This document shows positions 35,803-52,181 of a stretch of 64,000 nt of DNA, in pieces (the first letter of the stretch is position 1; each line of letters opens with the position of its first letter). The stretch comes from a virus. The notes under the pieces were generated by a model. The model ran no database searches and was not told where the DNA came from. It was given only the letters and a program-made list of their open reading frames with translations. The DNA lies in the IMG/VR virus record IMGVR_UViG_3300050122_000130, positions 1 through 64,000 of that record, one strand, 5' to 3'. Position numbers and translations under genes: made by a program.

Positions 35803-36876
35803 TTACTGGTGGCCGATACGCTCGAGGTTCTTGGCCAGACCCGGATTGCGCTTCGCGATCTCGCCGGAGGCGGAAGTCTGCTCCGCGGAATCCATCGCGT
35901 AGGTCTGCTTTTTGCCGCCGTCCTTCGGAGGCAGAGCATCGAAGGCAAACTTGAGCATTTCGACGTTTGCCTCTTTCGGCGGCTTCTTGCCGGAAGCGAT
36001 CTCGATCGCCTTGCTGAAGACCTGCGCAGCACTGTCGAAGGCCATGCCGCTGAGATTTCCGACGCGACCACGGACGTGATCCTTGGCAACGGCGACTGCA
36101 TCCATGCGGTCGCGCTCCTTCTTGATGCCGGCGTTGATGCCGGCCTGGATCTTCTCGTCCATCGCCTTGTCCTTCTCCTCGTCGTCTTCATCGTTGGCGG
36201 TTTCTTTGGGCGTCTCCGGATCGTGCTCTTCGTCTTCCTCGTTGACGTCCTTGTCCTTGGCGCCAGCGGTGAGCTTGCCGTCCTTGCTCTTCTTGGCATC
36301 TTTAGCCTTTTTGTCAGCCGCCTTCTTGGCTTCCATGCGCTTTTTCATGCGCTCGGCCTTCTCCTCGTCGGTCTCGGCCTCTTCGTCGTCGGCCATGTCC
36401 TCATCGTCCATGTCCTCGTCTTTGGCCTTGTCTTCCTTTTTGTCCTTCATATCGTCGGGGAAATCGTCGCACGCGACCTCGATCATATCGAGCACGGCAT
36501 CGAGCCCCTTCGGATCCAGCGCGCCGTCTTGCGCATACTGCGGATCGAGGTGACCCTCGACCGAAGCGTTGATCCATGCGCCAAGAACCGGACGCTTGGC
36601 CTTGAAATTCTTCGCATTGATATTGCGAAGACCCTTGTTCAGGTCGATCTTCGCATCCATCGCAAGCTGCGGACGCAGGAATGTGGTCAGCATGCCATAC
36701 GCGACAGTGCCGAGCGCCGACAGTTTAGCTTTCTTGATCATGGTCTTCTCCTTGATGTCAGGGTTAACGGAGTCGTATGCGCGCTCAGTCAGAAGTGACT
36801 CGTCGAGACCGAGCGCCACGATGGCCTCACGAGGAGTCTTGAATTTCTTGCGAAGTGCGTCACGCAATTTGCTCAT
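35803..36876 (-). CDS. head scaffolding protein
   Basis: Highly charged; many A-x-D motifs; between protease and decoration; ATGA coupling. Confidence 0.8.
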
Positions 36877-39413
36877 AGGTGCAGCCCCAGGATTGCCGAC
36901 TCGATCAGAGCCCACGGATCGATCGCGCCGTCGCCGACCACAACATCGCTACCCGCGCGGCCCTCAGAAACGAGCGCAACGTGATTTCCGATGATGTCGC
37001 GCATAACACCGTCGTAGGGCTTGCCCTCGTAAATGCCTGGCGTCATGTCAGCGCGGTAGCGATAGGCGCTGGACAATTCCTTTTTGCGTTTACTCTCGAC
37101 CGCGTTGATGCCGCGCTCAGCCCAGATGACGAGGCTGTTTTTCAGGTGCGGATGTTCGAACGAAGCGTCGGTACCGGTCGAACCGACCACGAGCTCAGGA
37201 CGATGGTTGGCGGCGTTGACGCCGACATGCTGATCGAGCAACGGCAGATTGTTGAAGGTCGACTCCGCCTTCTTCAGCTCCGCAGGATCTCGCAACAATT
37301 GATAGATACGGCCGGGATCGAGCCCCAGCTCCTTGTACTTCGGAATTTCCTTTCCGAGATACGGGTTCACAATCGCCTTCGAGATGTTCGAAATCTCGAC
37401 GTGCATGCGGCCGTCGGCGTCGATCCTGCGCACCGTCACCGGCGCGCGATCGAACGCCAAGCCGTGGCGCTCGATCCCAGGAATGGTTGCCCGGTCGAAC
37501 GCCAGCTCCTCGCCGTCGAGCTCGACGTCATGAATCTTGTCGGCGCCGTCGCCGTCCCAGCCGAACGGCACGATCTTGTCGTCTTCGTCGCGCGCCTCGA
37601 TCGTGCGTGACGCGCCGATCGATCCCAGCCGCTTCATGTGGCTCAGCAGGCCCTTGAAATTGAAGTCGCCGCTGTAGCGGACGGTCAGCGTGTGCTCGGC
37701 ATTGTACGGTTTCCGATCCCGCGCGAGGCCCGCGAACATGCCGTCCATCGCCTTCACACCGACTCGAGTCGCGAGATTCTTCTTCCTCGCAATGAGCCGA
37801 TCGGCCAATTCCTTGTCATCGCCGACGGCTTCGCGGATCTTCGCGTCCGGGATCTTTGAGACGCGCTCGACCGACGCCGAGAGCTCAGCTTCGGTCATCG
37901 GTGCGAACAGCTTCGCGGCGTCCGGGTTCATGCCCTTGTCGCGCAGTGTGTCGAATTCCGTAACCTTGTCGCCGAACGCCGCCCCCTTGGCCCCCCCCTG
38001 AGCACGGAAGCGCAGCGAACCGCCTACATCCAGCGTGGTCGTCTTACCTTCGAGGATCCCTTGATTGTCTCCACCCGTACCAGCCGCGTCCCAATTAGAA
38101 AGCCAGGCATGGATAGCGAAGTCTTTAGCCGCTTCTTTGCGCTCAGCCGGCGTGAACTCGCTGATGTTTTTCTTTTCGAGCTTCCGCCATTCCGTCGCAA
38201 CATGCTGACCGCCTTCCACATCGCGGTAGGGCAGCGTCGCGGCGCCGGCGAGCTGGTACAGGCGCGCGGCGGCGCGCTCATTGTCCGCGTGGGCCTTAGT
38301 CGGGGCTTTCTTGATGTAAAATTTGGAACCGCTTTTATCTTCGTAGGTTCCGCCCTCGTTCGATCCCAGCTTGCCGCCCTTTTTCGACAACTCGCCCATC
38401 TTCAAGGGTGAACTTGCGCCCTTCTCCGATGACTTTGCCTTTGAGGAGTTCCCGGAATGGGCTGATGCACTCGCAGAGGAACCGCTCCCGCTCCCGAATT
38501 TCCCGTCGTCTTTGCGCGGATGATCGCCCTCGTTCCATTCGTCGCTCGCTAAGGTTCCAAGGCTGCGCATGAACAGCGCCATATCGAAGGCCTTCGTGAT
38601 GCCCAGGCCCTTGCTCACGGTCTTGAAGATGGGAGCAACCCCCGACCCGCCGCATTTATCGCACCCAGCGCCCGCGCAGGCCCCGCAAACGCTATCCTGC
38701 GCAAGACGACGCTTCGCCAGCCGCTTCAGGCGGGCGTCAATCTTCCCGCCGACCGGGGTTCCGGTGTTGACGATCGTCGCCAGCGCCGGCTGATTATCGT
38801 CAGCGTGTTCCGGTTCCGCTTCTTCCTCGCGCGTCCACTTCGCGAAGTTCTCGCGCAGCTCCGCCCAATCCTCCGGCGCCATGTCCTGCGCCATGCCGAG
38901 ATTTTCGCCAAGCACCCGGGTGACGTTCGGATGCATCGGCTCCGGCAGTTTGTCGAGCGGAAACCAGCCGAATTCCGAATGCTCCTCGTTCAGCTTCGGT
39001 TTGAACTTGTCCTCGACCGATTCAGTGAACGTGTGGAACATCATCCCGTTCGGAGTCTGCACCAGGTCGAGCAGCTTCTTCCGGCCGGTAGCGGCCGGCG
39101 CCGTCGATCCGAGCTCCTCGCGAGCTTCGCGATCGGCGCATTGCTCCGGAGATTCCCCTGCATCAGCTTTGCCGCCCGGTAGCGCCCAGTGCCCGACGTA
39201 GTTGTCCTTGCCTTCCTCGCCCGCGCGCTTGATCAGTAGCACATCGCCATCTGGTGCCACGAACACGATGCCGGCCGCGATCGGCAGCGCTGCGTCTTCT
39301 CCGGCTTCCTTGTATGCGATAGCAGCAGCCTGCTTTACAGGTCTTCCCAGCTTAGTGAGTTCAGCTATATTAGCCGATATCACTTTCTGGGATGATCCCT
39401 GCTTCAGTGGCAT
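36873..39413 (-). CDS. prohead protease (DUF2213-like) polyprotein with NUDIX, Zn-finger, kinase-like and WDGDG domains
   Basis: Nudix box [23 protein letters not shown]; GSNEGG..FYIK..NE..NWD..DN..DVGG; C-terminal LLDQH..ELSSAY..NHVALV..GRAG. Confidence 0.88.
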
Positions 39414-40131
39414 TTTTGTTTTTCCATCTATTTGGCGGTCGCGTGCCAAGGCGCTTATGCGCTGCGCTCATCTTGGCTTTAGTTTCATCGGAATGCTTGC
39501 GGCCAATGCTTAGCTGTCTCAGCATTTCCATATGTTCGGGAGACGAACGAAGACCGCTAGTGTTTCTTGTCGCACTCATTTTTTGGCGAGTTTCCAACGA
39601 AACCTTGCGACCTGTTTGAGTCTGCGATCTTTTCAGATTGCTCTCTGGAGTAATAATTTGATTAGCTCTTGCAACTCGGATTTTATCGCGAGTTTTTTCA
39701 GAAAGAGGTATCCCGGCTCGACTACTCAATACCAAACGGCCTGCATCCGTCATGATGTGCGGTTTCGACATTTTTTTGAGCGTTTCCGCTGAATGTCGTC
39801 TGCCTGCGCGTTTAGCTGCGACCTCTGGTGAAGACATCGGGCTGGTCTCTCCGCCCAATCCGACATTGTAGCCTTGTGATCGGTCAGTCGTCCGAAAGAA
39901 CCTAATGAACTCTATTTCTAGGCTCAGTATTTCGTGCTTCTCACCAAGCGCCAGAACTTGAGGAACCAAGTTGTTAGTCCCGTAGCGCATGATAGCCTGA
40001 TGAACGGGTAGATTAGATCCTCGTCTCGCATCACTGCAATGCCTCATCCAACGATGTCTTATCGTTTTTGAGGTAATGCCAAAATATCGCTTTCCATTCG
40101 GAAATTCGATCACATAGAGTAGGTAAGCCAT
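39370..40131 (-). CDS. GIY-YIG homing endonuclease with NUMOD3 repeats
   Basis: LLY..YFGIT..RW..H..AI..YG..E..GYN..GG; repeated GR.HS.ET..KMS. Confidence 0.9.
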
Positions 40132-44032: not shown

Positions 44033-44866
44033 CTACGAGAAGCCCGGCACGATCGGGATGCTCACACATCGGCAGTTAATCAACTGGCCTGGATGGATGA
44101 ACTCTTTGACCGCAGGGTCATACCATCCTTTGGTGACGTCGTAGGTTTTGCCGTTGTTCTTGACATGCGTCGGGCGCGGGACCTTCCCCCCGCCTGAATG
44201 TCGCCATGTCGCGGTAGTGATGCCGTTCTCAATGAACCGCACGCGCGACATGTTCGCCGTCGCTTTATTGTTCTGATCTTTCGATATCAGCGCCGCACGC
44301 CGCTTCGTCACGCCGTACCGCTTCTCAAGTTGTTTCGAAAGTGTTCCAAGGTCCCGGCCAGCCGATACCGACCGCATCACGAGTCCTTCGACTTCCTGCA
44401 GGTGCTGGCTGGCGATCGATTTGATCAACCCAACATTCTCCGCGGTCGTCGCCTCGACCACGTCCTTCATGGCTTGCGACATCTGAAACCGAACAGAGAA
44501 GCCGCCTTTTCGCAAGATCGAAGCGAGCTGCTGGTCCGTCCGCTTGTGCGCGGCCGTCGCGAAGTATTTCGCCAGTTGCGGTGCCGCCCAATCGAATCTC
44601 TTCAGCCAGCGCTTCTTCAGCAACTCGATCGCTTTCTTGAGCGCGTTTGCCGGCAGGATATCGTCCATCGCCATCGCTGGCGGGTTCTCGCGGTACGCAG
44701 CCTTGATCCAGTAATCGACGGATGCGTTCATTTCCTTGATGAGCCGGTCCAGCTTCTTGCGGTAGGCGACGCTGAGGCCGATGTTCGGATGCACCGGCCG
44801 CAGCTTCTTCGGCTTCGAGGCCTTGGATGCTTGGCCAACTGAAGTCGCGCGAAATATTCCGTGCAT
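44033..44866 (-). CDS. MuF / SPP1 gp7-like head morphogenesis protein
   Basis: ENVGLIKSI..RAALI.KDQNNK..W.HS..R..H..PGQLINCRC. Confidence 0.92.
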   Translation of the reverse strand: MHGIFRATSVGQASKASKPKKLRPVHPNIGLSVAYRKKLDRLIKEMNASVDYWIKAAYRENPPAMAMDDILPANALKKAIELLKKRWLKRFDWAAPQLAKYFATAAHKRTDQQLASILRKGGFSVRFQMSQAMKDVVEATTAENVGLIKSIASQHLQEVEGLVMRSVSAGRDLGTLSKQLEKRYGVTKRRAALISKDQNNKATANMSRVRFIENGITTATWRHSGGGKVPRPTHVKNNGKTYDVTKGWYDPAVKEFIHPGQLINCRCVSIPIVPGFS

Positions 44867-45146
44867 CGAACTTTCCAACGTAGGCCCGAACGAACGACAT
44901 ATCGTCGGGCACGATCGATTGCATTTTTAGCAGCTGGTCGACCATGGATTTGACGTCGGAGTAAATCTCCTCCGGCGTGGCCATGGCCCAGAACTTACCG
45001 CTGCCGTAGAGCGTCACAGCGGTCTTGCTGGGACCGATGGCCATATCCATCCCGTAGACGACATCAACCGGCGCCTTCGGCAGGGCCGGCGCGATCGCCG
45101 CGGCCGCAACGCCCGTCAGAAACGCTCTGCGGTTAAGTTCGGGCAT
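44325..45146 (-). CDS. twin-arginine-leader protein; only the 5' ~95 codons are likely real, the rest overlaps MuF
   Basis: MPELNRRAFLTGVAAAAIA; GGAGG RBS. Confidence 0.45.
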   Translation of the reverse strand: MPELNRRAFLTGVAAAAIAPALPKAPVDVVYGMDMAIGPSKTAVTLYGSGKFWAMATPEEIYSDVKSMVDQLLKMQSIVPDDMSFVRAYVGKFDARNISRDFSWPSIQGLEAEEAAAGASEHRPQRRLPQEAGPAHQGNERIRRLLDQGCVPREPASDGDGRYPAGKRAQESDRVAEEALAEEIRLGGTATGEILRDGRAQADGPAARFDLAKRRLLCSVSDVASHEGRGRGDDRGECWVDQIDRQPAPAGSRRTRDAVGIGWPGPWNTFETT

Positions 45147-45435
45147 CGAGCGCGCGCCTCCCGATCGGCGGGTCACCCATCAATTGCGACGTGACATTCT
45201 CGTGCTCGAGATAACCGTCTCTGCTAGGATCGTATTGCGCGGCAGCGCGGTAATCCGGCTTGTCGACAGCGTACTCTTTCAGCCGATTGTCGACTGAACC
45301 TGCCATGCGCTTGCGGTAACCGCGCATATATTCCTTCATGTATCGATTGTACGATTCTCGATCGGCCCATTTCGACGGCGTGGCACCTTTCGGTCTACCG
45401 CGTGGACGTCCAGTTGGATTGCTCCAATAGCTCAT
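45133..45435 (-). CDS. AT-hook-containing small DNA-binding protein
   Basis: TGRPRGRPK; YN.YMKEYMR.YRKR. Confidence 0.6.
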   Translation of the reverse strand: MSYWSNPTGRPRGRPKGATPSKWADRESYNRYMKEYMRGYRKRMAGSVDNRLKEYAVDKPDYRAAAQYDPSRDGYLEHENVTSQLMGDPPIGRRALDART

Positions 45436-45701: not shown

Positions 45702-45977
45702 TCACTCTTTGCGAAAGGAGGTTCCCGACGTATCGCCGGAGCCCTCCCCGTTTTTTGAGTTCGAACGCTCCAGATCCTTCACTTCCTCGAGCATCGCGTC
45801 GAAGTCGGCCTCGCCGCTATCGAGCGAACCTTCGTGCGCCTCGAAGGCCTGGTTCATCCGAGAGTCGAAGCCCGGCATACGGTCGATCAGCGCCTGCGCG
45901 CGCTCGTCCATCTTCCGCTTGCGCTCGGCCACCATCTGCGCTGCGAGACGCGCCTTGCTGATCGGTGCGTCCGCCAT
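45702..45977 (-). CDS. hypothetical coiled protein
   Basis: GAGG RBS; coherent ORF. Confidence 0.6.
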   Translation of the reverse strand: MADAPISKARLAAQMVAERKRKMDERAQALIDRMPGFDSRMNQAFEAHEGSLDSGEADFDAMLEEVKDLERSNSKNGEGSGDTSGTSFRKE

Positions 45978-45978
45978 A

Positions 45979-46413
45979 TCAGCCTCGTCCCGCTTCGCCG
46001 CTCGATCGATTGTCCGACTCAGATGTAGGTTCAGCAACTGCGACAGCAGCAGCGTTCGCTGCATCGGGCGCGTCCCTCTTGAAGCCGGCCTCTGCGAAGA
46101 TCCTCATCATGGCCTCGGCGCCGAGCGGGTCGCCGATCTTGACCGCTCCGCGAATCAGCGCCGATGACGAATACATGCCGGCGACCACGCCCATGATCTG
46201 CTCCGCGCAATAGTTGCGGTGCTTCTGCTTGTCCTGGACGACGTCGATGCCGGGAAACAAATCGATCACGGTATTGAGCTGGTCGCGCGCGCGCGCCGCG
46301 AGGAAGCGCCCATACCGCAGGCTCACGTCCATCAGCCACGTCTGGTCATCACCGGTGGTGATTTCCTTTTTGATCTCGTCCAGGCGCCGCTGGTAGGCTT
46401 CATGGTTGAACAT
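45979..46413 (-). CDS. hypothetical protein
   Basis: TGATG coupling to the upstream small ORF. Confidence 0.7.
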   Translation of the reverse strand: MFNHEAYQRRLDEIKKEITTGDDQTWLMDVSLRYGRFLAARARDQLNTVIDLFPGIDVVQDKQKHRNYCAEQIMGVVAGMYSSSALIRGAVKIGDPLGAEAMMRIFAEAGFKRDAPDAANAAAVAVAEPTSESDNRSSGEAGRG

Positions 46414-46577
46414 CAGTCGTCGTCTTCCATCTCGACTTCGTTGCCATTGTCGTCGACCACCTTCACCTTGAACGGTGGGTCGTCTTTCTGCACTACAACG
46501 ACTTCGCCGTCCGGTCCAGCACCGATCGGACCCTGCTCGAGCGTCGAGGTATCAATCTTCTTCGGCTCTTTGGACAT
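46413..46577 (-). CDS. 54-aa acidic protein directly after the portal-ART gene (not in the ORF track)
   Basis: MSKEPKKIDTSTLEQGPIG...EVEMEDDD; GAGGA RBS; coupled on both sides. Confidence 0.65.
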   Translation of the reverse strand: MSKEPKKIDTSTLEQGPIGAGPDGEVVVVQKDDPPFKVKVVDDNGNEVEMEDDD

Positions 46578-46578
46578 T

Positions 46579-49500
46579 TCAGACTTCCTCGAGCTCGATG
46601 TGAGTGCCCTTGACGGACTTCACATGAAAGCGGCTGCCCGACTTGAACAGCACCTCAGCCTCACCTGGATGAGACGATAGCTTCTCGATGTCGCGTCCGT
46701 TCTTGCCGTGCACCGTGTAGCTATAATCGCCGGACCACGTTCCCTGGTTCTTGCTAGTTGAGGTGAAGCCACGTTCTTCGATGATGTGCCCGGGAATATA
46801 GGCCTTGAACTGCTCCGGCGTCAGCGACGCTTTGCGGTACGTGGTTTGCGTATACTTCGGCAGCTTCTCAAGCCCGGAATTCAGCGACTTCATGAACTTG
46901 TATTGCGCGACAGTCATCGTGCCACGGCGCAACTCGGAATTCACCTTGCCGTAATGCGAACCACTGTACGCGATGATCGGAACAGCGTCCGCGCCACTGA
47001 TGTGCTTGGACAAGCCTGCCGATTTGACCTTCTTTTCCGCTTGCGCGACGTAGGCCTTGGCAGCATCACCGCCACCAAACAGCGCTTCCATCGCTTCGTA
47101 GTGCGTCTTCAGCTCAGGATCGGCCGCAAACTTCTCGTCGAGCTCCTTCTGCGCTTTAGCCTCTTTTTCGGCCTTCTCGGCAGCGGCTTTCTTCGCGTTC
47201 TCTTCGACCTTCTTCGCCGCGGCCTCAGCCGCAGCTGATTCAGTCTGCTTGACCTTGGCGAGCGTGGCTTTGTAGTCGGCGACCTTCTGGTTCAGCTGCG
47301 CGTCGCTCAGGCCTTCCTTGCCGGCGTACTTCGCATTGAACTCCTTGATCGCAGTGACAGCTTCCGGCTCGGAGCTCGAGATCGGTAGCGTCGTTCCTTT
47401 CTTGGCTTTCTTCAGCTCCTCCGGCGTGGCCTGCGGAACAGTGGGCTTGTCCTGCAACAGGCCCATCTTCTTCATCTGATCCTTCATCGCAGGCTTCATG
47501 TTTTCCGAGAGCTGCTCGGCAAAAGCCGGATTGTACTTGAGCAGGTTTGCAGCGGTATCGGTGTCGTTCTTCTGCAGCGCCTCAGCCACCGCGCCCAGGA
47601 ATTTCGGATAGGTGCCGCCTTCACCCGACATGAACTCAGCCAGCGCGTTCAGCTTCGCTGGCTCAGGCGTCTTTTCTGTAACCGCTGGACCTTCCCACGA
47701 TTTAGCAATTGCAGCTTTTTTCTCCGGAGTCAGAGCAGCAGCTTCCTTCGCTGCCTTCTTCTCGGCATCCGTCATCGGATGGCCCTTATACATCAGCTTG
47801 CCGTTTTCGGTGTACTTCTCCAGCTTCATGCCGAGCGACTTGGCTTGCGCCGGCATCGAAACTGAGGGCCAGCCCATGGTCTCCATGATCTCTTTTGCGG
47901 TTGTGCCCTTCTCGAGGAGATGGCCGATGATCTCCTTTTTCGAGTTGAACTTCGCACCAACGAAGCCCTTGGCTACATCTGCAAGAGCCTTAGCCGCGCT
48001 TGACTTGCCGCTCGCCGGCGTACCGCCGCCCCCTGTGGTCGAGAACTTGCCGTCCTGATCGCGCTTGACCTTGCTCTCGTCGAACTGGCCATCGTCGAAC
48101 GCCCAGACATCGGCCGCGATCTCGGAGGGCTCGATCGCTTCGTCAGCAGCGCCGTCGACTTCCTTGTTGTCGCGCGATCCACTACCGCCTTCGCCGCCAC
48201 CGCCGGCTCCGCCGCCCTGAACCATGCCCTGGTCGGCTGGCGGCTCCGGTAGATCGTCTGGCTCGAGTCCATTGTACGGCGAGTCATCGTCAGCGATGAC
48301 GATCTCACGAACTTCTTCTTGGCCGATAACGCCCATGTCGACGTAAATCTGATGGGTCTCGGCCTCGGTCTTCTTGACCTCAGATTCGCCCTTCTCGTCC
48401 AGGCTCCAGAGCGGTTCGAACTCGAAGCCGATCGAGGGATCGACTTCACCGAACAGATTGAGCTGAATAAAATCAATAATGCGCTTCAGCTTGTCGCGGA
48501 ACAGGTTCTCCTGCATCGCGTGCACAAGATCGTAGAACACCCGAAGCTCCCCCTCGCTCGAGGCGTTCAGGCCCGAAGGCGTGATGCCGAGCAGCACGAT
48601 GAGCGGGATACCCGACACCGATGACATCTGCTCCTGGCTTTGCGCCTGCAGGTGGTCGAGCGTCCCGAGGGGGGTTGAGATGTTGAAGAACTCTTCGGTC
48701 TCCTTGTCCAGCACCATGGCGCCGGCATTGCTGCGCGCCTTGTTGAACAGATCGATGCGGTCAAGCACCTCCTCGCCGCCGCCCTGCAGCAGCGATTGAG
48801 CGTTCGTGTAGACGCCCGAAACAGAGAAGCTTTCGATCAGGTTGGTCACGGCCTGTCGGGTGCGCAGCCAGTTGTCGACATATGGCTTGGCCATCTGCGA
48901 CATCGACAGGCCGCCGAATGCATACGACGGCTTGAGAATGTCCGGCACCGGCCGGCCGACGAACGTCAACAGGCGCGAGACGTGCACCTGCTTCGCCATC
49001 GCGAACCAGACTTGCGGATTGTACCAATCATCCGCCAGCGGGTCATTCGCGTTGTAATTGACGGGGTAGCACCAGATCGGCTCGATATGTTTGATGTTCT
49101 TCAGCGAGCCCTTTTTGAATTGAGCCTTGCTGGTCTCATCGCTTCCATTGCCTAGGTCGCTCTTGAGCTCGTCCGGATCGTCACTGTCGCCGGTGTCAAT
49201 GTAGAGGTGGCTCCGCCCCATCCAGCCATCGAACTCTGCGACGGTCTTGAACTTGCCCCGCAGGTCGAGGCGCTTCATGTCCTCCTCGATCGCCTTCAGC
49301 TTCTTCTGCAAAGCCTCGTTGCGTTTGCGTTGTGCGATCTCCTCCGGAGTGGGCTCGTCGTCTTCCTCGTCGTCATCGGCCACGGCGCCGCCGGCAGGGG
49401 CACCATCCGCATCATCGTCCTCTTCGTCCTCGAGCGGCGCATCGGGCGCTTTGTCGGCGCCAAGGCCTTCATCCGCCTCGTCGGCGTCCTCGTCGCTGGC

Positions 49501-50085
49501 ATCGCTCTCAGGTTCGGCTTCACCGGCAATCGTGAGCCGGATCCACTTCCTGGTCATCTCGGTCGCAAGGCGTTCCGAGATCCGGCGATACTCCGGCCGC
49601 TGGGTCAGCTGCGACAGATACGCGTACCCAAGAAAGCCGATGCCCTCCGAGAAGGCCTCGCCGATCGGGTTCGCGAAATTCCACGCGTTTGTGTACGACT
49701 CGTTGGCCCAGGTCGCGATCGCGCCGTCCAGCGCCATTTCCGGCTCGGCGCCCTGGGGTAGAACGCCCGGAGGTGGCTTGAATGCCTGGAACGGGTTGTA
49801 GAGCGCCGCTCCTTGGCTCTGCGAGGCCCCTGAACGCGTTTTACGTGCGGCCCGCGCCATAACTTCGGAACTTATCTTCATCGGCGCACGGGGCTCGACA
49901 ACGGCCGCATGGTGCTTCTCAAGATCGACAGCTGTGCGCGGTGGCACTTTGTCCGCCGCGGGCGCCGGCTTGGCTGTGGGAGCCGGCGTCGCCGCGACAG
50001 CAGGGGTGTGTCGCATCACACCGAGAACGGCCTCCTTGATGGTTTCTGAAGTCGGCCGCTGCCGCTTATACCGGGTCACCGTCAC
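46579..50085 (-). CDS. portal protein (DUF1073-like) fused to a wHTH-like domain and a C-terminal ADP-ribosyltransferase
   Basis: Portal motifs F.GY.YL.QL.QRPEYR..EMTRKWI and LLGITPSGLNASSEGE; ART R-S-E triad YRK / FTSTS / GEAEVLF. Confidence 0.9.
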   Translation of the reverse strand: MTVTRYKRQRPTSETIKEAVLGVMRHTPAVAATPAPTAKPAPAADKVPPRTAVDLEKHHAAVVEPRAPMKISSEVMARAARKTRSGASQSQGAALYNPFQAFKPPPGVLPQGAEPEMALDGAIATWANESYTNAWNFANPIGEAFSEGIGFLGYAYLSQLTQRPEYRRISERLATEMTRKWIRLTIAGEAEPESDASDEDADEADEGLGADKAPDAPLEDEEDDDADGAPAGGAVADDDEEDDEPTPEEIAQRKRNEALQKKLKAIEEDMKRLDLRGKFKTVAEFDGWMGRSHLYIDTGDSDDPDELKSDLGNGSDETSKAQFKKGSLKNIKHIEPIWCYPVNYNANDPLADDWYNPQVWFAMAKQVHVSRLLTFVGRPVPDILKPSYAFGGLSMSQMAKPYVDNWLRTRQAVTNLIESFSVSGVYTNAQSLLQGGGEEVLDRIDLFNKARSNAGAMVLDKETEEFFNISTPLGTLDHLQAQSQEQMSSVSGIPLIVLLGITPSGLNASSEGELRVFYDLVHAMQENLFRDKLKRIIDFIQLNLFGEVDPSIGFEFEPLWSLDEKGESEVKKTEAETHQIYVDMGVIGQEEVREIVIADDDSPYNGLEPDDLPEPPADQGMVQGGGAGGGGEGGSGSRDNKEVDGAADEAIEPSEIAADVWAFDDGQFDESKVKRDQDGKFSTTGGGGTPASGKSSAAKALADVAKGFVGAKFNSKKEIIGHLLEKGTTAKEIMETMGWPSVSMPAQAKSLGMKLEKYTENGKLMYKGHPMTDAEKKAAKEAAALTPEKKAAIAKSWEGPAVTEKTPEPAKLNALAEFMSGEGGTYPKFLGAVAEALQKNDTDTAANLLKYNPAFAEQLSENMKPAMKDQMKKMGLLQDKPTVPQATPEELKKAKKGTTLPISSSEPEAVTAIKEFNAKYAGKEGLSDAQLNQKVADYKATLAKVKQTESAAAEAAAKKVEENAKKAAAEKAEKEAKAQKELDEKFAADPELKTHYEAMEALFGGGDAAKAYVAQAEKKVKSAGLSKHISGADAVPIIAYSGSHYGKVNSELRRGTMTVAQYKFMKSLNSGLEKLPKYTQTTYRKASLTPEQFKAYIPGHIIEERGFTSTSKNQGTWSGDYSYTVHGKNGRDIEKLSSHPGEAEVLFKSGSRFHVKSVKGTHIELEEV

Positions 50086-52181
50086 CGGCGCATGCCCGCG
50101 GCTTTGGCGATAACCGCCTTGCTGATCTTCATCGGCAGCCTCGCGTGCGTTCGGTGCATGACCGCCAGCGCAAGCGCCATGACGCAGTCGTCGTTGAAGC
50201 CTTCGGGCGCGCTGTTATGCGTGGCAAACCCGGATGCGATGAATGTCTTTGTCGTTGTCCCGAGAGCTACCACTTCGCGGTCGCCAAGGTATTCAACCGA
50301 CTCAATGGCTACTTTCTCATCGGTCCATAGCGCGCCAATTCGATTTGGATCAAACTTGGCTAGAAGTCGCTTCGGTCTAATGAGACCTAGAAATCGCAAC
50401 ACTTCTGCTTGACCGCCCTTCAGACTTAATCCGATTACGTCACGATTGGTGCCGCCACTCCCGCTTTCCGACCAATTAAATTGAAGCTTTGTCAGACAGG
50501 ATCGCACCTCCTGCAGCATAGCGTTATCCCGCTGCGCCATTGAGACTCTGAACGTCGATCCATCTCGACCAATGCGATCCTGCTGCGAAAGAGAGCCTTC
50601 GCCATCGAAGGCACCGGCTAGATAACCAGCCTCATAAGAATTGAGAGATTGTCCCCACTCCTTCGCTACCCTGATTAGCTTATGCGGAACGTGGCGTGGT
50701 GACTTGCTCGAGGATATACCTCGGAGTTGGGAAGTGGTCCGCCACTGCATCGGGCCATTGCTGCTTGCAGTCAGCCAGAGATGTTCCGACGACGAAATAA
50801 ATTCATGACCGTCTTCGAGCGTAATGCGGTGACATGGTCGCATAATTCTATCGGCATCGGTGACGGTCGAAGATCGCCACTTACGGACCTTCTGTCTGCC
50901 GACCGGGTTCTCATCGAATGCGGTAAGACGATCACCGGGACGGAGCGAACCTACGGGCACATAACGAAGGTCGTCGGTAAGAACTGGGGTTTCTGCATCC
51001 ATGCAGTACCTTACACCAGTTCTGGTGTACTCGTACTCGAAGATCTCGAGCTCGCGTTGGATGTTGCCCGCATGATCGTGCGGCAACGCGCCGTCCGGCG
51101 CAGCGGGGAATGCCACATCGCCAGATTGAATGGCGAGTGCGAGACCTTCCATCAAAAGCTGCTTTGACTTCGAACTGAAAATGAACTCTTCGACCTTCGA
51201 ACCTGGTGTCTTCTGCAAGCGCTCCACGATTGGATCGCCGACACCGGTCGCGTCCGCCAGCGTCGGCGTATAACCAATCGACGCTTTTAGGATCGGGATC
51301 TGCTGCTCCCAACTCCCCTGCATGCGGATGAACTTCGTAAGCCGGCCATGCTCATCGAGACCGCAATCGACCGTCCAGTCCTGTTTCTTCGCAAAGTCGA
51401 GACCGTGCACCACCGATGCGCCGACTTGAATGCCGGGCAGATTGGCGCATGCCGCAATCGACTTGAGGCCAAAAGGATTGCCCTGATCGTCTGATGGCTC
51501 AGCGAGATAGAGCTCCTTGAAGACGGCGTCCGGCAGAACTTTCTTTGCGTCCGCGACTTCGTCTGCCTCGAGAACGTGCGCGGCGATCGCATCGATGGCT
51601 GTGATCTTGTGGTAGCCGAAGTTAGGCTCCTCACCCTTCTCAGCCTTGCGTGCGAGCTGATAGAACCAATTTCGCCGGCCTTTGACGTTGCCTATAATCC
51701 GGATCGGACCGCGGGTCGCGGTCAGTGTCGACCGAACGGCAAACCAAGCGTTCTCTTTCGTGCGGCTCGCCTCGTCCATCACCGCGGCATAGACGTCCTC
51801 GCCGTAGAGCGAGTCCGGCTTGTCCGCCGATTTGAACCAGAGCACCGCGCCGTTGATCAGCGTGATGGTCTTGAGCGTTTGGTTCTCGGTGCGCAGCTCT
51901 TGCGGGATGGCGCGCAAGCATCGCCTGAAAGCGATATCGGCCTGTCCTGAGACCGGAGCTACCCACCAGTAATTCCAGCCCTCCTGACCGTGGAACGCTT
52001 GCTCGCTGAACCAAACGATACAGCCCGATGTCTTGCCGGCCTTCGTCGAGGCCTCGATAAACGAATAGCGGCGATCGTCAAAGATCGCATCGAGCTGTTT
52101 CGGATAGAGATACGGTCGCTCGTAATCGAGAAGAAATTCCTCGATATTGGCGACGGCGCCGACGGACGTAGCCTTGGCCAC
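50082..52181 (-). CDS. terL: terminase large subunit with intein
   Basis: Walker A-like ASTKAGKT, VMDEA, GLDFAK..D and DDCVMALALA. Confidence 0.93.
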   Translation of the reverse strand: MAKATSVGAVANIEEFLLDYERPYLYPKQLDAIFDDRRYSFIEASTKAGKTSGCIVWFSEQAFHGQEGWNYWWVAPVSGQADIAFRRCLRAIPQELRTENQTLKTITLINGAVLWFKSADKPDSLYGEDVYAAVMDEASRTKENAWFAVRSTLTATRGPIRIIGNVKGRRNWFYQLARKAEKGEEPNFGYHKITAIDAIAAHVLEADEVADAKKVLPDAVFKELYLAEPSDDQGNPFGLKSIAACANLPGIQVGASVVHGLDFAKKQDWTVDCGLDEHGRLTKFIRMQGSWEQQIPILKASIGYTPTLADATGVGDPIVERLQKTPGSKVEEFIFSSKSKQLLMEGLALAIQSGDVAFPAAPDGALPHDHAGNIQRELEIFEYEYTRTGVRYCMDAETPVLTDDLRYVPVGSLRPGDRLTAFDENPVGRQKVRKWRSSTVTDADRIMRPCHRITLEDGHEFISSSEHLWLTASSNGPMQWRTTSQLRGISSSKSPRHVPHKLIRVAKEWGQSLNSYEAGYLAGAFDGEGSLSQQDRIGRDGSTFRVSMAQRDNAMLQEVRSCLTKLQFNWSESGSGGTNRDVIGLSLKGGQAEVLRFLGLIRPKRLLAKFDPNRIGALWTDEKVAIESVEYLGDREVVALGTTTKTFIASGFATHNSAPEGFNDDCVMALALAVMHRTHARLPMKISKAVIAKAAGMRR
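50214..51005 (-). mobile_element. 264-aa intein with a LAGLIDADG-type endonuclease region
   Basis: Y|CMDAETPVLT ... FIASGFATHN|S; SSEHLW block B; YLAGAFDGEG. Confidence 0.93.

Follow-up and report, generated by a model that had tools for sequence, protein, structure and literature searches.

The DNA analyzed here (the window) is a stretch of 64,000 nucleotides, positions 1 to 64,000 of IMG/VR virus record IMGVR_UViG_3300050122_000130, and derives from an uncultured phage of approximately 95 kb (the source is this single record of 95,488 bp, with an estimated completeness of 90%). Directly downstream of the large terminase gene (TerL; 50082-52181, minus strand), the window carries a gene for a phage portal protein whose C-terminal extension ends in an ADP-ribosyltransferase (ART) domain, and this gene is followed by an open reading frame (ORF) for a small acidic protein. 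A portal bearing a winged helix-turn-helix (wHTH)-like domain, a spacer and an ART of the R-S-ExE type had been proposed in the original prediction, which was made from the nucleotide sequence, and this architecture was borne out by profile searches, translation, AlphaFold2 (AF2) modeling and alignment with the ART Tre1. The features of the locus are as follows.

46579-50085, minus strand: whole portal-cargo gene, a single open frame of 1168 codons whose GTG start overlaps the TerL stop (GTGA).
48226-49623, minus strand: portal domain proper, residues ~155-620 (PF06381, phrog_146 and homology to the gp19 portal).
48004-48138, minus strand: portal/cargo junction tag, ...VWAFDDGQFDESKVKRDQDGKF followed by a Gly-rich tract (invariant columns).
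47776-47940, minus strand: predicted wHTH, DUF3489-like, residues 716-770 (AF2 topology; DUF3489 matches in relatives).
47305-47775, minus strand: Ala/Lys-rich flexible linker, small helical bundle and conserved FNxKY helical region, residues 771-927 (AF2 secondary structure).
47122-47304, minus strand: long single helix rich in Ala, Lys and Glu, residues 928-988, 61 residues (AF2 helix, extension residues 279-339; predicted local distance difference test score (pLDDT) 83-88).
46582-47121, minus strand: R-S-ExE ART domain, residues 989-1168 (PF03496, PF01129, Tre1 alignment and Foldseek).
46834-46836, minus strand: catalytic R1084, in TYRK (verified by translation).
46753-46761, minus strand: STS, residues 1109-1111, in GFTSTS (verified by translation).
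46654-46662, minus strand: EAE, residues 1142-1144, in GEAEVLF (verified by translation).
46413-46577, minus strand: coupled acidic partner ORF, 54 amino acids (coupling, homologues and co-occurrence).

The product of 46579-50085 matched Phage_portal_3 (PF06381) over residues 155-579 (E 5.3e-75), and its portal region matched phrog_146 (2e-94). The solved gp19 portals of Pseudomonas phages Pa193 and E217 matched at E 3e-32 with an alignment extending up to residue 650; residues 323-650 aligned with residues 205-533 of Pa193 gp19, and residue ~645 corresponds to the end of the C-terminal barrel. Full-length homologues of the whole protein aligned starting at residue 1, and an acidic low-complexity insert was found within the portal domain (residues 185-260). 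The profile matches, the solved dodecameric homologue and the position after TerL thus agree that this gene encodes a PF06381-type phage portal. In the virion portal of Pa193, residues 94-528 were modeled, the C-terminal barrel is the last ordered part, and residues 529-765 (the C-terminal 237) are without density (PMC11456595). The C-terminus points into the capsid in related solved portals, and by analogy the site of cargo fusion would do the same here.

ADPrib_exo_Tox (PF03496) matched residues 1024-1159 with E 1.6e-9 (37.8 bits against a cut-off of 23.4; 42.4 bits in the scan of the phage's own genome), and the ART family PF01129 matched with E 1.1e-5 (25.3 bits against a cut-off of 22.3). 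The YR, STS and EAE motifs that had been read from the sequence earlier were all present on translation. The closest solved enzyme was Tre1 (6DRH/6DRE; E 5.6e-14), whose TYRG, GFMSTS and NEAEVLY sequences align with these motifs, and the loop preceding ExE is notably Tre1-like. In the AF2 model of the extension the mean pLDDT was 78.9, and values exceeded 90 in the ART core. A Foldseek comparison of the modeled ART with Tre1 gave E 1e-11, a template modeling score (TMt) of 0.81 and a root-mean-square deviation of 2.7 A at 30% identity; further matches (117 at E <= 1e-3) included ExoS/ExoT, XopAI, Vis, Lmo0066, C3, VIP2 and CDTa. The R-S-ExE residues were at least 90% conserved in two alignments of close homologues and invariant or nearly invariant in 40 distant relatives. 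A pseudo-enzyme like XopAI was considered and rejected, since R, STS and ExE are intact and conserved. It is apparent from the profile, the motif order and the fold that the domain belongs to the R-S-E ART group (C2/C3/ExoS/Tre1), and this identity is far above chance.

The ART is predicted to be arginine-specific, as may reasonably be expected from its ExE motif and its nearest solved relatives, Tre1, ExoS/T, Vis and SpvB, which we take to be arginine-specific ARTs; the title of Vis in the database match reads NAD(+)--arginine ADP-ribosyltransferase (NAD, nicotinamide adenine dinucleotide). The original prediction had likewise assumed arginine modification, as in Alt and Mod of phage T4. The arginine part of that proposal is reasonable, but the likeness to Tre1 is far clearer, and Alt and Mod were returned by none of the sequence or structure searches with the portal-ART. 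FtsZ is therefore as good a target candidate as RNA polymerase.

The extension comprises residues 650-1168 (~520 residues) and is basic (isoelectric point (pI) 8.95, 14% Lys). Its start at residue ~650 (nucleotide 48138) lies slightly upstream of position 48110, from which an extension of ~500 residues had been proposed. In the junction tag at its beginning, A662, D664, E670, R675 and G679 were invariant or nearly so in two alignments of relatives, and the pLDDT of this stretch was below 50, suggesting flexibility. A scan of the genome with a hidden Markov model (HMM) of the tag gave only two significant sites, the portal junction and the following.

38475-38543, minus strand: second copy of the junction tag (tag HMM, independent E-value (iE) 7e-6), within the head-maturation-protease gene and before a kinase-like cargo.

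The tag was also found between modules in relatives, and the alignments and the tag HMM indicated that A-x-D and FDESKxKRDxDGKF are conserved at every module boundary. In the nearest relative, L012 (an 89-kb contig), the portal domain is 83% identical, but the ART is only 25% identical and is joined directly, without a wHTH. DNA homology between the window and L012 was 72% along the portal and stopped exactly at 48139, that is, at residue 650. The cargo therefore acts like a cassette that can be exchanged, and the tag marks its 5' boundary.

No part of the extension is as well conserved as the wHTH, which lies between the tag and the ART and has 20 invariant columns in 55 residues as against 12 in the 180-residue ART. 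Its predicted topology, three helices followed by a beta-hairpin wing (H-H-H-beta-beta), was obtained with a pLDDT of ~90 in two independent AF2 models. The structural matches over model residues 17-76 were all wHTH regulators (DriD, NolR, MecI, SmtB, MarR and PadR; Z 4-5.2, Foldseek E >= 7e-3), and no Foldseek match of the wHTH/helical model reached E <= 1e-3. The window segment scored 16.1 bits against DUF3489 (PF11994), below the cut-off of 29.5. DUF3489 was listed in all nine relatives scanned (9/9) and was the top match in seven of them; L006 reached 29.1 bits, and an L008 ORF exceeded the cut-off with 31.2 bits and matched the family wHTH profile at 4.5e-15. Judged from sequence and model, the segment may be a divergent DUF3489-type winged helix. 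The Ala/Lys linker described earlier is indeed rich in Ala and Lys but consists of two parts, a flexible stretch after the wHTH and the predicted helix of residues 928-988. Residues 771-927 gave no Pfam, PHROG or fold match.

A word-indexed protein search with the extension gave 48 clusters, nearly all of which carry PF06381 and most of which are ~1500 amino acids long. Their additional ~350 residues form a kinase-like module between portal and cargo with its own copy of the tag ahead of it, and the ART is at the extreme C-terminus in every relative of this set. A single-sequence scan of viral contigs with the extension gave no match, whereas alignment-based scans did. When 1.84 billion representatives were searched, 2301 clusters (50% identity) were obtained at E <= 1e-3 and 99 at E <= 1e-30, with the ART and the preceding helical region typically C-terminal in a long protein; among 40 long proteins related to the ART module, 28 carried PF06381 and none (0/40) carried MuF. 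The whole 1168-residue protein had 0 matches among 50,697 deposited phage genomes. ART relatives in deposited phage genomes (29-35% identity) were the "minor head protein" genes of Mallos, ZQG1 and Lj771; others, from four Streptomyces phages, are annotated as hypothetical protein or ADP-ribosyltransferase. In PHROGs, the ART relatives fell into one MuF+ART family and one "virion structural protein" family.

Portals of the same clade carry, at the same position, a kinase-like module, NUDIX, Acb1, GNAT, histidine phosphatase or Zeta toxin. Thus, an effector is fused to a virion anchor and is exchanged among orthologues, as in head-fused effectors. Portals with variant cargo were seen at loci L032, L037/L073, L048 and L090 and in proteins P0013 and P0048; Acb1, NUDIX and ART occur together in one protein of 1777 amino acids, the portal protein of L026 carries a pair of ART domains, and L016 has the wHTH without an ART. 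In the present genome, the kinase-like module resides in the head-maturation-protease gene (36873-39449; NUDIX, kinase-like and DUF2213; PF09979 5e-47, phrog_2229 5e-91) instead of the portal, preceded by the second tag. The MuF-like head-morphogenesis protein is encoded by a separate gene (44033-44878, minus strand; PF04233 3.5e-11, phrog_324 4e-77), and the portal protein P0001 gave no Phage_Mu_F match and so lacks the N-terminal MuF domain of MuF toxins. An overlapping ORF of 283 codons with a twin-arginine translocation (Tat)-like leader (44325-45176, minus strand) is mostly an out-of-frame shadow of MuF, with approximately its first 100 codons outside.

The 54-codon ORF downstream of the portal gene, which had been noted earlier as coupled and acidic, proved to be real, coupled and strongly associated with the ART. 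Its product has a net charge of -9 and a pI of 4.1, with a core of G-x-G-x-DG-x-(L/V)-x-V-V...D-x-P-P-F and then an acidic tail. Its ATG is located 1 nucleotide past the portal stop and is preceded, 8 nucleotides upstream, by a GAGGAA Shine-Dalgarno-like site; the stop of the ORF itself overlaps the following ATG. Homologues were found directly after the portal-ART gene in L001-L004 (tblastn 5e-11 to 1e-4) and in five database clusters (69-93% identity). It is a genuine, translationally coupled gene. The protein had no Pfam or PHROG match and nothing usable in the ESM Atlas, and its profile matches in the PDB were at chance level (E >= 0.3).

A coupled small acidic ORF followed the ART-portals of viral contigs (L001-L004, L006, L007, L012, L015, L019, L025 and L026) and of metagenomic contigs (L092, L095, L096, L098, L099 and L100). 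In most of these loci the core G-x-G-x-(D/G)-G-x-(L/I)-x-V-V was followed by acidic residues; the exception was L101, in which a Cys-rich ORF of 152 codons takes the place of the small acidic ORF. Among loci with known downstream sequence, such an ORF was present after 11/11 ART-portals but after only 6/63 portals lacking an ART (Fisher 3e-9). On the portal tree the ART label needs 4-6 changes, which leaves only 2-4 independent contrasts, all in the same direction. The six ART-less exceptions include L024 (unannotated extension), with a coupled acidic ORF of 102 codons (net charge -9). Portals with GNAT, histidine phosphatase or NUDIX cargo, and those with the unannotated extensions L022, L058 and L079, were without such an ORF; the next ORF after L090 (Zeta-toxin cargo) has 72 codons and a net charge of -2, and plain portals were usually followed directly by MuF. 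In an independent lineage, an Asp/Glu-rich ORF of 89-92 codons lies at +2 nucleotides after the MuF-ART genes (1195 amino acids) of the cultured phages Mallos and ZQG1. A scan with the small-ORF alignment returned only the known L002 in viral contigs and none in metagenome contigs, which leaves its occurrence away from ART-portals unanswered.

In L012, the N-terminal two thirds of the partner are replaced, along with the ART, by a Cys-rich sequence, and the last 15 codons are kept. These correspond to a 49-nucleotide island of 94% identity (window 46411-46459, minus strand, against L012:8647-8695), which spans the acidic tail and the overlapping start of the next gene and is surrounded by ~3.5 kb without DNA homology. 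This island may be a joint left by recombination or an element under strong constraint. A profile search of the whole 95-kb record found neither ADP-ribosylhydrolase (ARH; PF03747) nor macro (PF01661) domains, and thus any protection from the ART would have to come from binding.

Two other origins of the small ORF were considered and rejected. A frameshift or readthrough joining it to the portal is incompatible with the stop-to-start offset, which varies from -13 to +5 nucleotides in relatives. The 54-codon ORF and an ORF of 144 codons are not remnants of a longer ancestral protein of the ~1500-residue size of most relatives, since the additional ~350 residues are the inserted kinase-like module and the ART is C-terminal in all.

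Two further observations were made downstream of ART-portals. An ORF of ~120 codons (45702-46064, minus strand) between the small acidic ORF and MuF carries a motif LL(D/N)LHLSR(T/S)I and a coiled-coil-like remainder and had no Pfam or PHROG match; in a regular-expression search the motif occurred at ART-portal loci only (13 loci, several from the same contigs), and the ORF may be a second cargo-linked gene. In addition, a Cys-rich module (C-x2-C ... C ... W/V-C) in the ORF after the ART-portal (L099:4553 onward, L101:5590 onward and L012:8515-8694) replaces the acidic core or adds to it, and this Cys-rich ORF may represent a zinc-binding variant of the partner.

The domain identity, the intact catalytic motifs, the fold, the cassette-like exchange of cargo and the co-occurrence with the partner gene were observed, and we infer from them a model of packaging topology, cleavage, ejection, arginine specificity, target and inhibition by the partner. 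In this model, which we consider the probable one, the extension is a capsid-internal cargo that is released and ejected to ADP-ribosylate a host protein, and the partner silences or escorts the ART. The cargo begins at the point where the chain reaches the inside of the capsid; fusion by itself would therefore build up to twelve copies into each procapsid, without a separate targeting signal. Because the portal remains on the capsid, delivery requires release. The head-maturation protease would free the cargo at the conserved A-x-D / FDESKxKRDxDGKF junction; given the conserved tag at module boundaries, the flexible Gly-rich tract and a protease that itself bears tagged cargo, junction cleavage appears to be the most economical reading. 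The freed cargo would leave with the DNA on infection, and the ejected ART would modify one or more host proteins, presumably at arginines, at the very start of infection. During late synthesis and assembly, the 54-residue protein would bind and silence the ART, or escort it. The delivery of 12 copies, the host transcription or defence proteins named as targets and the restraint of the enzyme by the acidic peptide, all put forward in the original prediction, are at this point proposals. Removal of the extension before head assembly had been named in the original prediction as an outcome that would speak against delivery, and this condition needs to be changed: the cargo most likely must be cut off to leave the capsid, and cleavage after assembly would thus support the delivery model rather than refute it.

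Several points weigh against this model. Uncleaved cargo could not reach the host, since the portal stays with the capsid, and the cleavage, ejection and enzymatic activity of the extension are inferred rather than demonstrated. The wHTH assignment is weak by score (16 bits in the window; Z ~5). With only 2-4 contrasts, a sign test cannot reach significance for the association between ART and partner, and six ART-less portals are also followed by coupled small acidic ORFs. The region from the portal core to MuF is variable throughout between the window and L012, and the apparent joint replacement of the ART and the N-terminal part of the partner may be a coincidence. An integrase (PF00589), the only lysogeny gene looked for, was not found in the record (~90% complete); the phage may thus be a virulent one, in which case the need for an antitoxin is lessened.

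An assembly or escort role of the small protein is a serious rival to its role as an inhibitor. That the ORF encodes not an antitoxin but an assembly or packaging factor for cargo portals, or an unrelated acidic late protein, is a possibility that we rate as real though somewhat doubtful; it could, for example, be an escort that keeps the basic, Lys-rich extension from disturbing ring assembly, or a DNA mimic or decoy. The part shared by the window and L012 is the acidic tail, at 94% compared with 72% for the portal. Its constancy while the ART differs suggests that it interacts with something other than the ART, and the charges are opposite, with a basic extension and an acidic peptide. The acidic ORFs after ART-less portals fit this explanation as well, and, with no integrase found, self-intoxication would matter only late in infection. 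However, the family with the G-x-G-x-DG-x-L-x-V-V core was seen exclusively downstream of ART-bearing portals, such an ORF is lacking where the cargo is GNAT, histidine phosphatase or NUDIX and in L022/L058/L079 (L024 has one), and the N-terminal part of the partner changes with the ART type. Furthermore, a small structural immunity protein against a phage ART has an experimental precedent (PMC11699363).

It is unlikely that the ART is not injected at all and acts instead in the producer at a late stage of infection, or once the cell has lysed, as a weapon resembling polymorphic toxins or as a fitness factor. MuF toxins have been proposed as bacterial weapons (PMC5576092), Bxa acts outside its producer and needs immunity proteins (PMC11699363), and a candidate immunity gene would be in keeping with a toxin active in the producing cell. 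On the other hand, an ART joined to the inward-facing end of an essential structural protein would lie inside particles and not free in the lysate, and the co-resident NUDIX and kinase-like enzymes, together with Acb1 in relatives (which acts against the cyclic-oligonucleotide-based antiphage signaling system, CBASS), fit early counter-defence. MuF toxins are also a trait of temperate phages (PMC5576092), and such a lifestyle is not supported here, since the integrase search of the record was negative. We regard it as very unlikely that the cargo remains attached to the portal within the capsid and functions there, where, for example, the wHTH would hold or organize the last-packaged DNA end and the ART would modify phage proteins or DNA or be vestigial. 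The high conservation of the wHTH (20/55 columns against 12/180) suggests a conserved phage-side ligand such as DNA, and L016 retains the wHTH without an ART; the C-terminal 237 residues of the Pa193 portal are disordered, and their cleavage was not demonstrated (PMC11456595). Yet the conservation of R-S-ExE in close and distant homologues argues for an active enzyme, and the free replacement of the cargo by unrelated enzymes is what host-directed effectors typically show. NAD, moreover, is not expected inside capsids.

A more far-reaching version of the delivery model, which is rather improbable as a whole, combines peptide-like inhibitors, which would form a previously undescribed family and act specifically on Tre1-like ARTs borne by portals, with an unusually conserved DUF3489-type wHTH that would tether the enzyme to the packaged DNA end, cleavage at the tag, exit with the genome, and action on DNA-associated host proteins or FtsZ before phage gene expression. 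If true, this would be a general system for delivering "portal cargo", directed by the tag and equipped with a safety catch. Capsid-carried enzymes act before phage gene expression and are thus prime candidates for first-strike takeover and counter-defence. The locus offers a compact, testable case, with a single enzyme whose catalytic residues are clear, a 54-residue protein as its candidate inhibitor, a junction tag that is well defined and a relative in which the cargo has been swapped naturally. It raises the mechanistic question of how a protein fused to a portal that stays on the capsid finds its way out, and the Tre1 likeness suggests specific targets for the ART.

Selfish elements were also noticed in the head module. 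TerL contains an in-frame intein-like insert of 264 amino acids with the look of a classical intein (window 50214-51005, minus strand), which starts with Cys (..TGVRY followed by CMDAET..), ends at ..ATHN before S, carries the LAGLIDADG motif LAGAFDGEGS and matched PF14528 with E 2.9e-4 (21.5 bits, slightly below the cut-off of 22.5). The TerL of L012 is uninterrupted at this site (..TRTGVRYSAPAGYHDDC..), and the related portal P0004 has a Hint/intein insert inside the portal itself. A GIY-YIG and NUMOD3 homing-endonuclease-like gene (39370-40131, minus strand) adjoining the head-protease gene is the second selfish element of the module; in L002 and L004, GIY-YIG-like ORFs lie directly downstream of MuF.

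Among known systems, Tre1-Tri1 of Serratia proteamaculans provides the closest solved enzyme (6DRH/6DRE), with near-identical R, STS and EAEVL motifs. Tre1 is a PAAR-linked effector of type VI secretion that ADP-ribosylates arginine, with FtsZ among its targets, and its immunity protein is an ADP-ribosylhydrolase. The present genome, in contrast, has no ARH or macro match, and delivery would be by the phage capsid. Alt of T4 is a separate protein that is packaged via a targeting sequence and trimmed by the prohead protease, and we know of no partner or immunity gene for it. As an R-S-E ART that is carried in the capsid and delivered with the DNA, as described in passages of PMC5512222 and PMC9503650, Alt is a functional analogy only.

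Neighboring immunity genes have been described for MuF toxins, a trait of temperate phages (PMC5576092), and Bxa, a prophage ART of Bacteroides stercoris, is blocked by Bsi, a small adjacent non-enzymatic protein, with its modification reversed by the ARH BAH (PMC11699363). As in the present locus, the ART of these toxins is C-terminal behind an exchangeable N-terminal domain, and toxin and neighbor are exchanged in a cassette-like manner (PMC11699363, PMC5576092). The anchor here is, however, the portal, with MuF as the separate gene at 44033-44878, and neither an ARH nor an integrase match was found in the record. The small neighbor of Bxa binds and blocks the ART (PMC11699363), whereas the adjacent 54-residue protein is a candidate inhibitor; it has no detectable similarity to any described family.

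The locus corresponds most closely to the head-fused or "polyvalent" effectors described by Iyer et al. (2017, PMC5512222; 2022, PMC9503650), in which, as here, an enzymatic effector is joined to a virion anchor and encoded beside the terminase. In their passages on such effectors, NUDIX and 2H (Acb1-like) domains fused to portal, MuF or capsid protease are presumed to be packaged and injected, and portal- and MuF-fused ARTs are described by comparative genomics and proposed to be head-packaged, without an experimental case of a portal-borne ART (PMC5512222, PMC9503650). The passages returned by a term search of the same papers do not mention a DUF3489-like wHTH, a junction tag or an acidic partner gene, and we found no experimental study of this large, mostly portal-borne ART clade (2301 clusters at E <= 1e-3). 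As a concept, the arrangement is not new, since capsid-carried ART fusions have already been predicted from genomes, and this locus is a clear further example.

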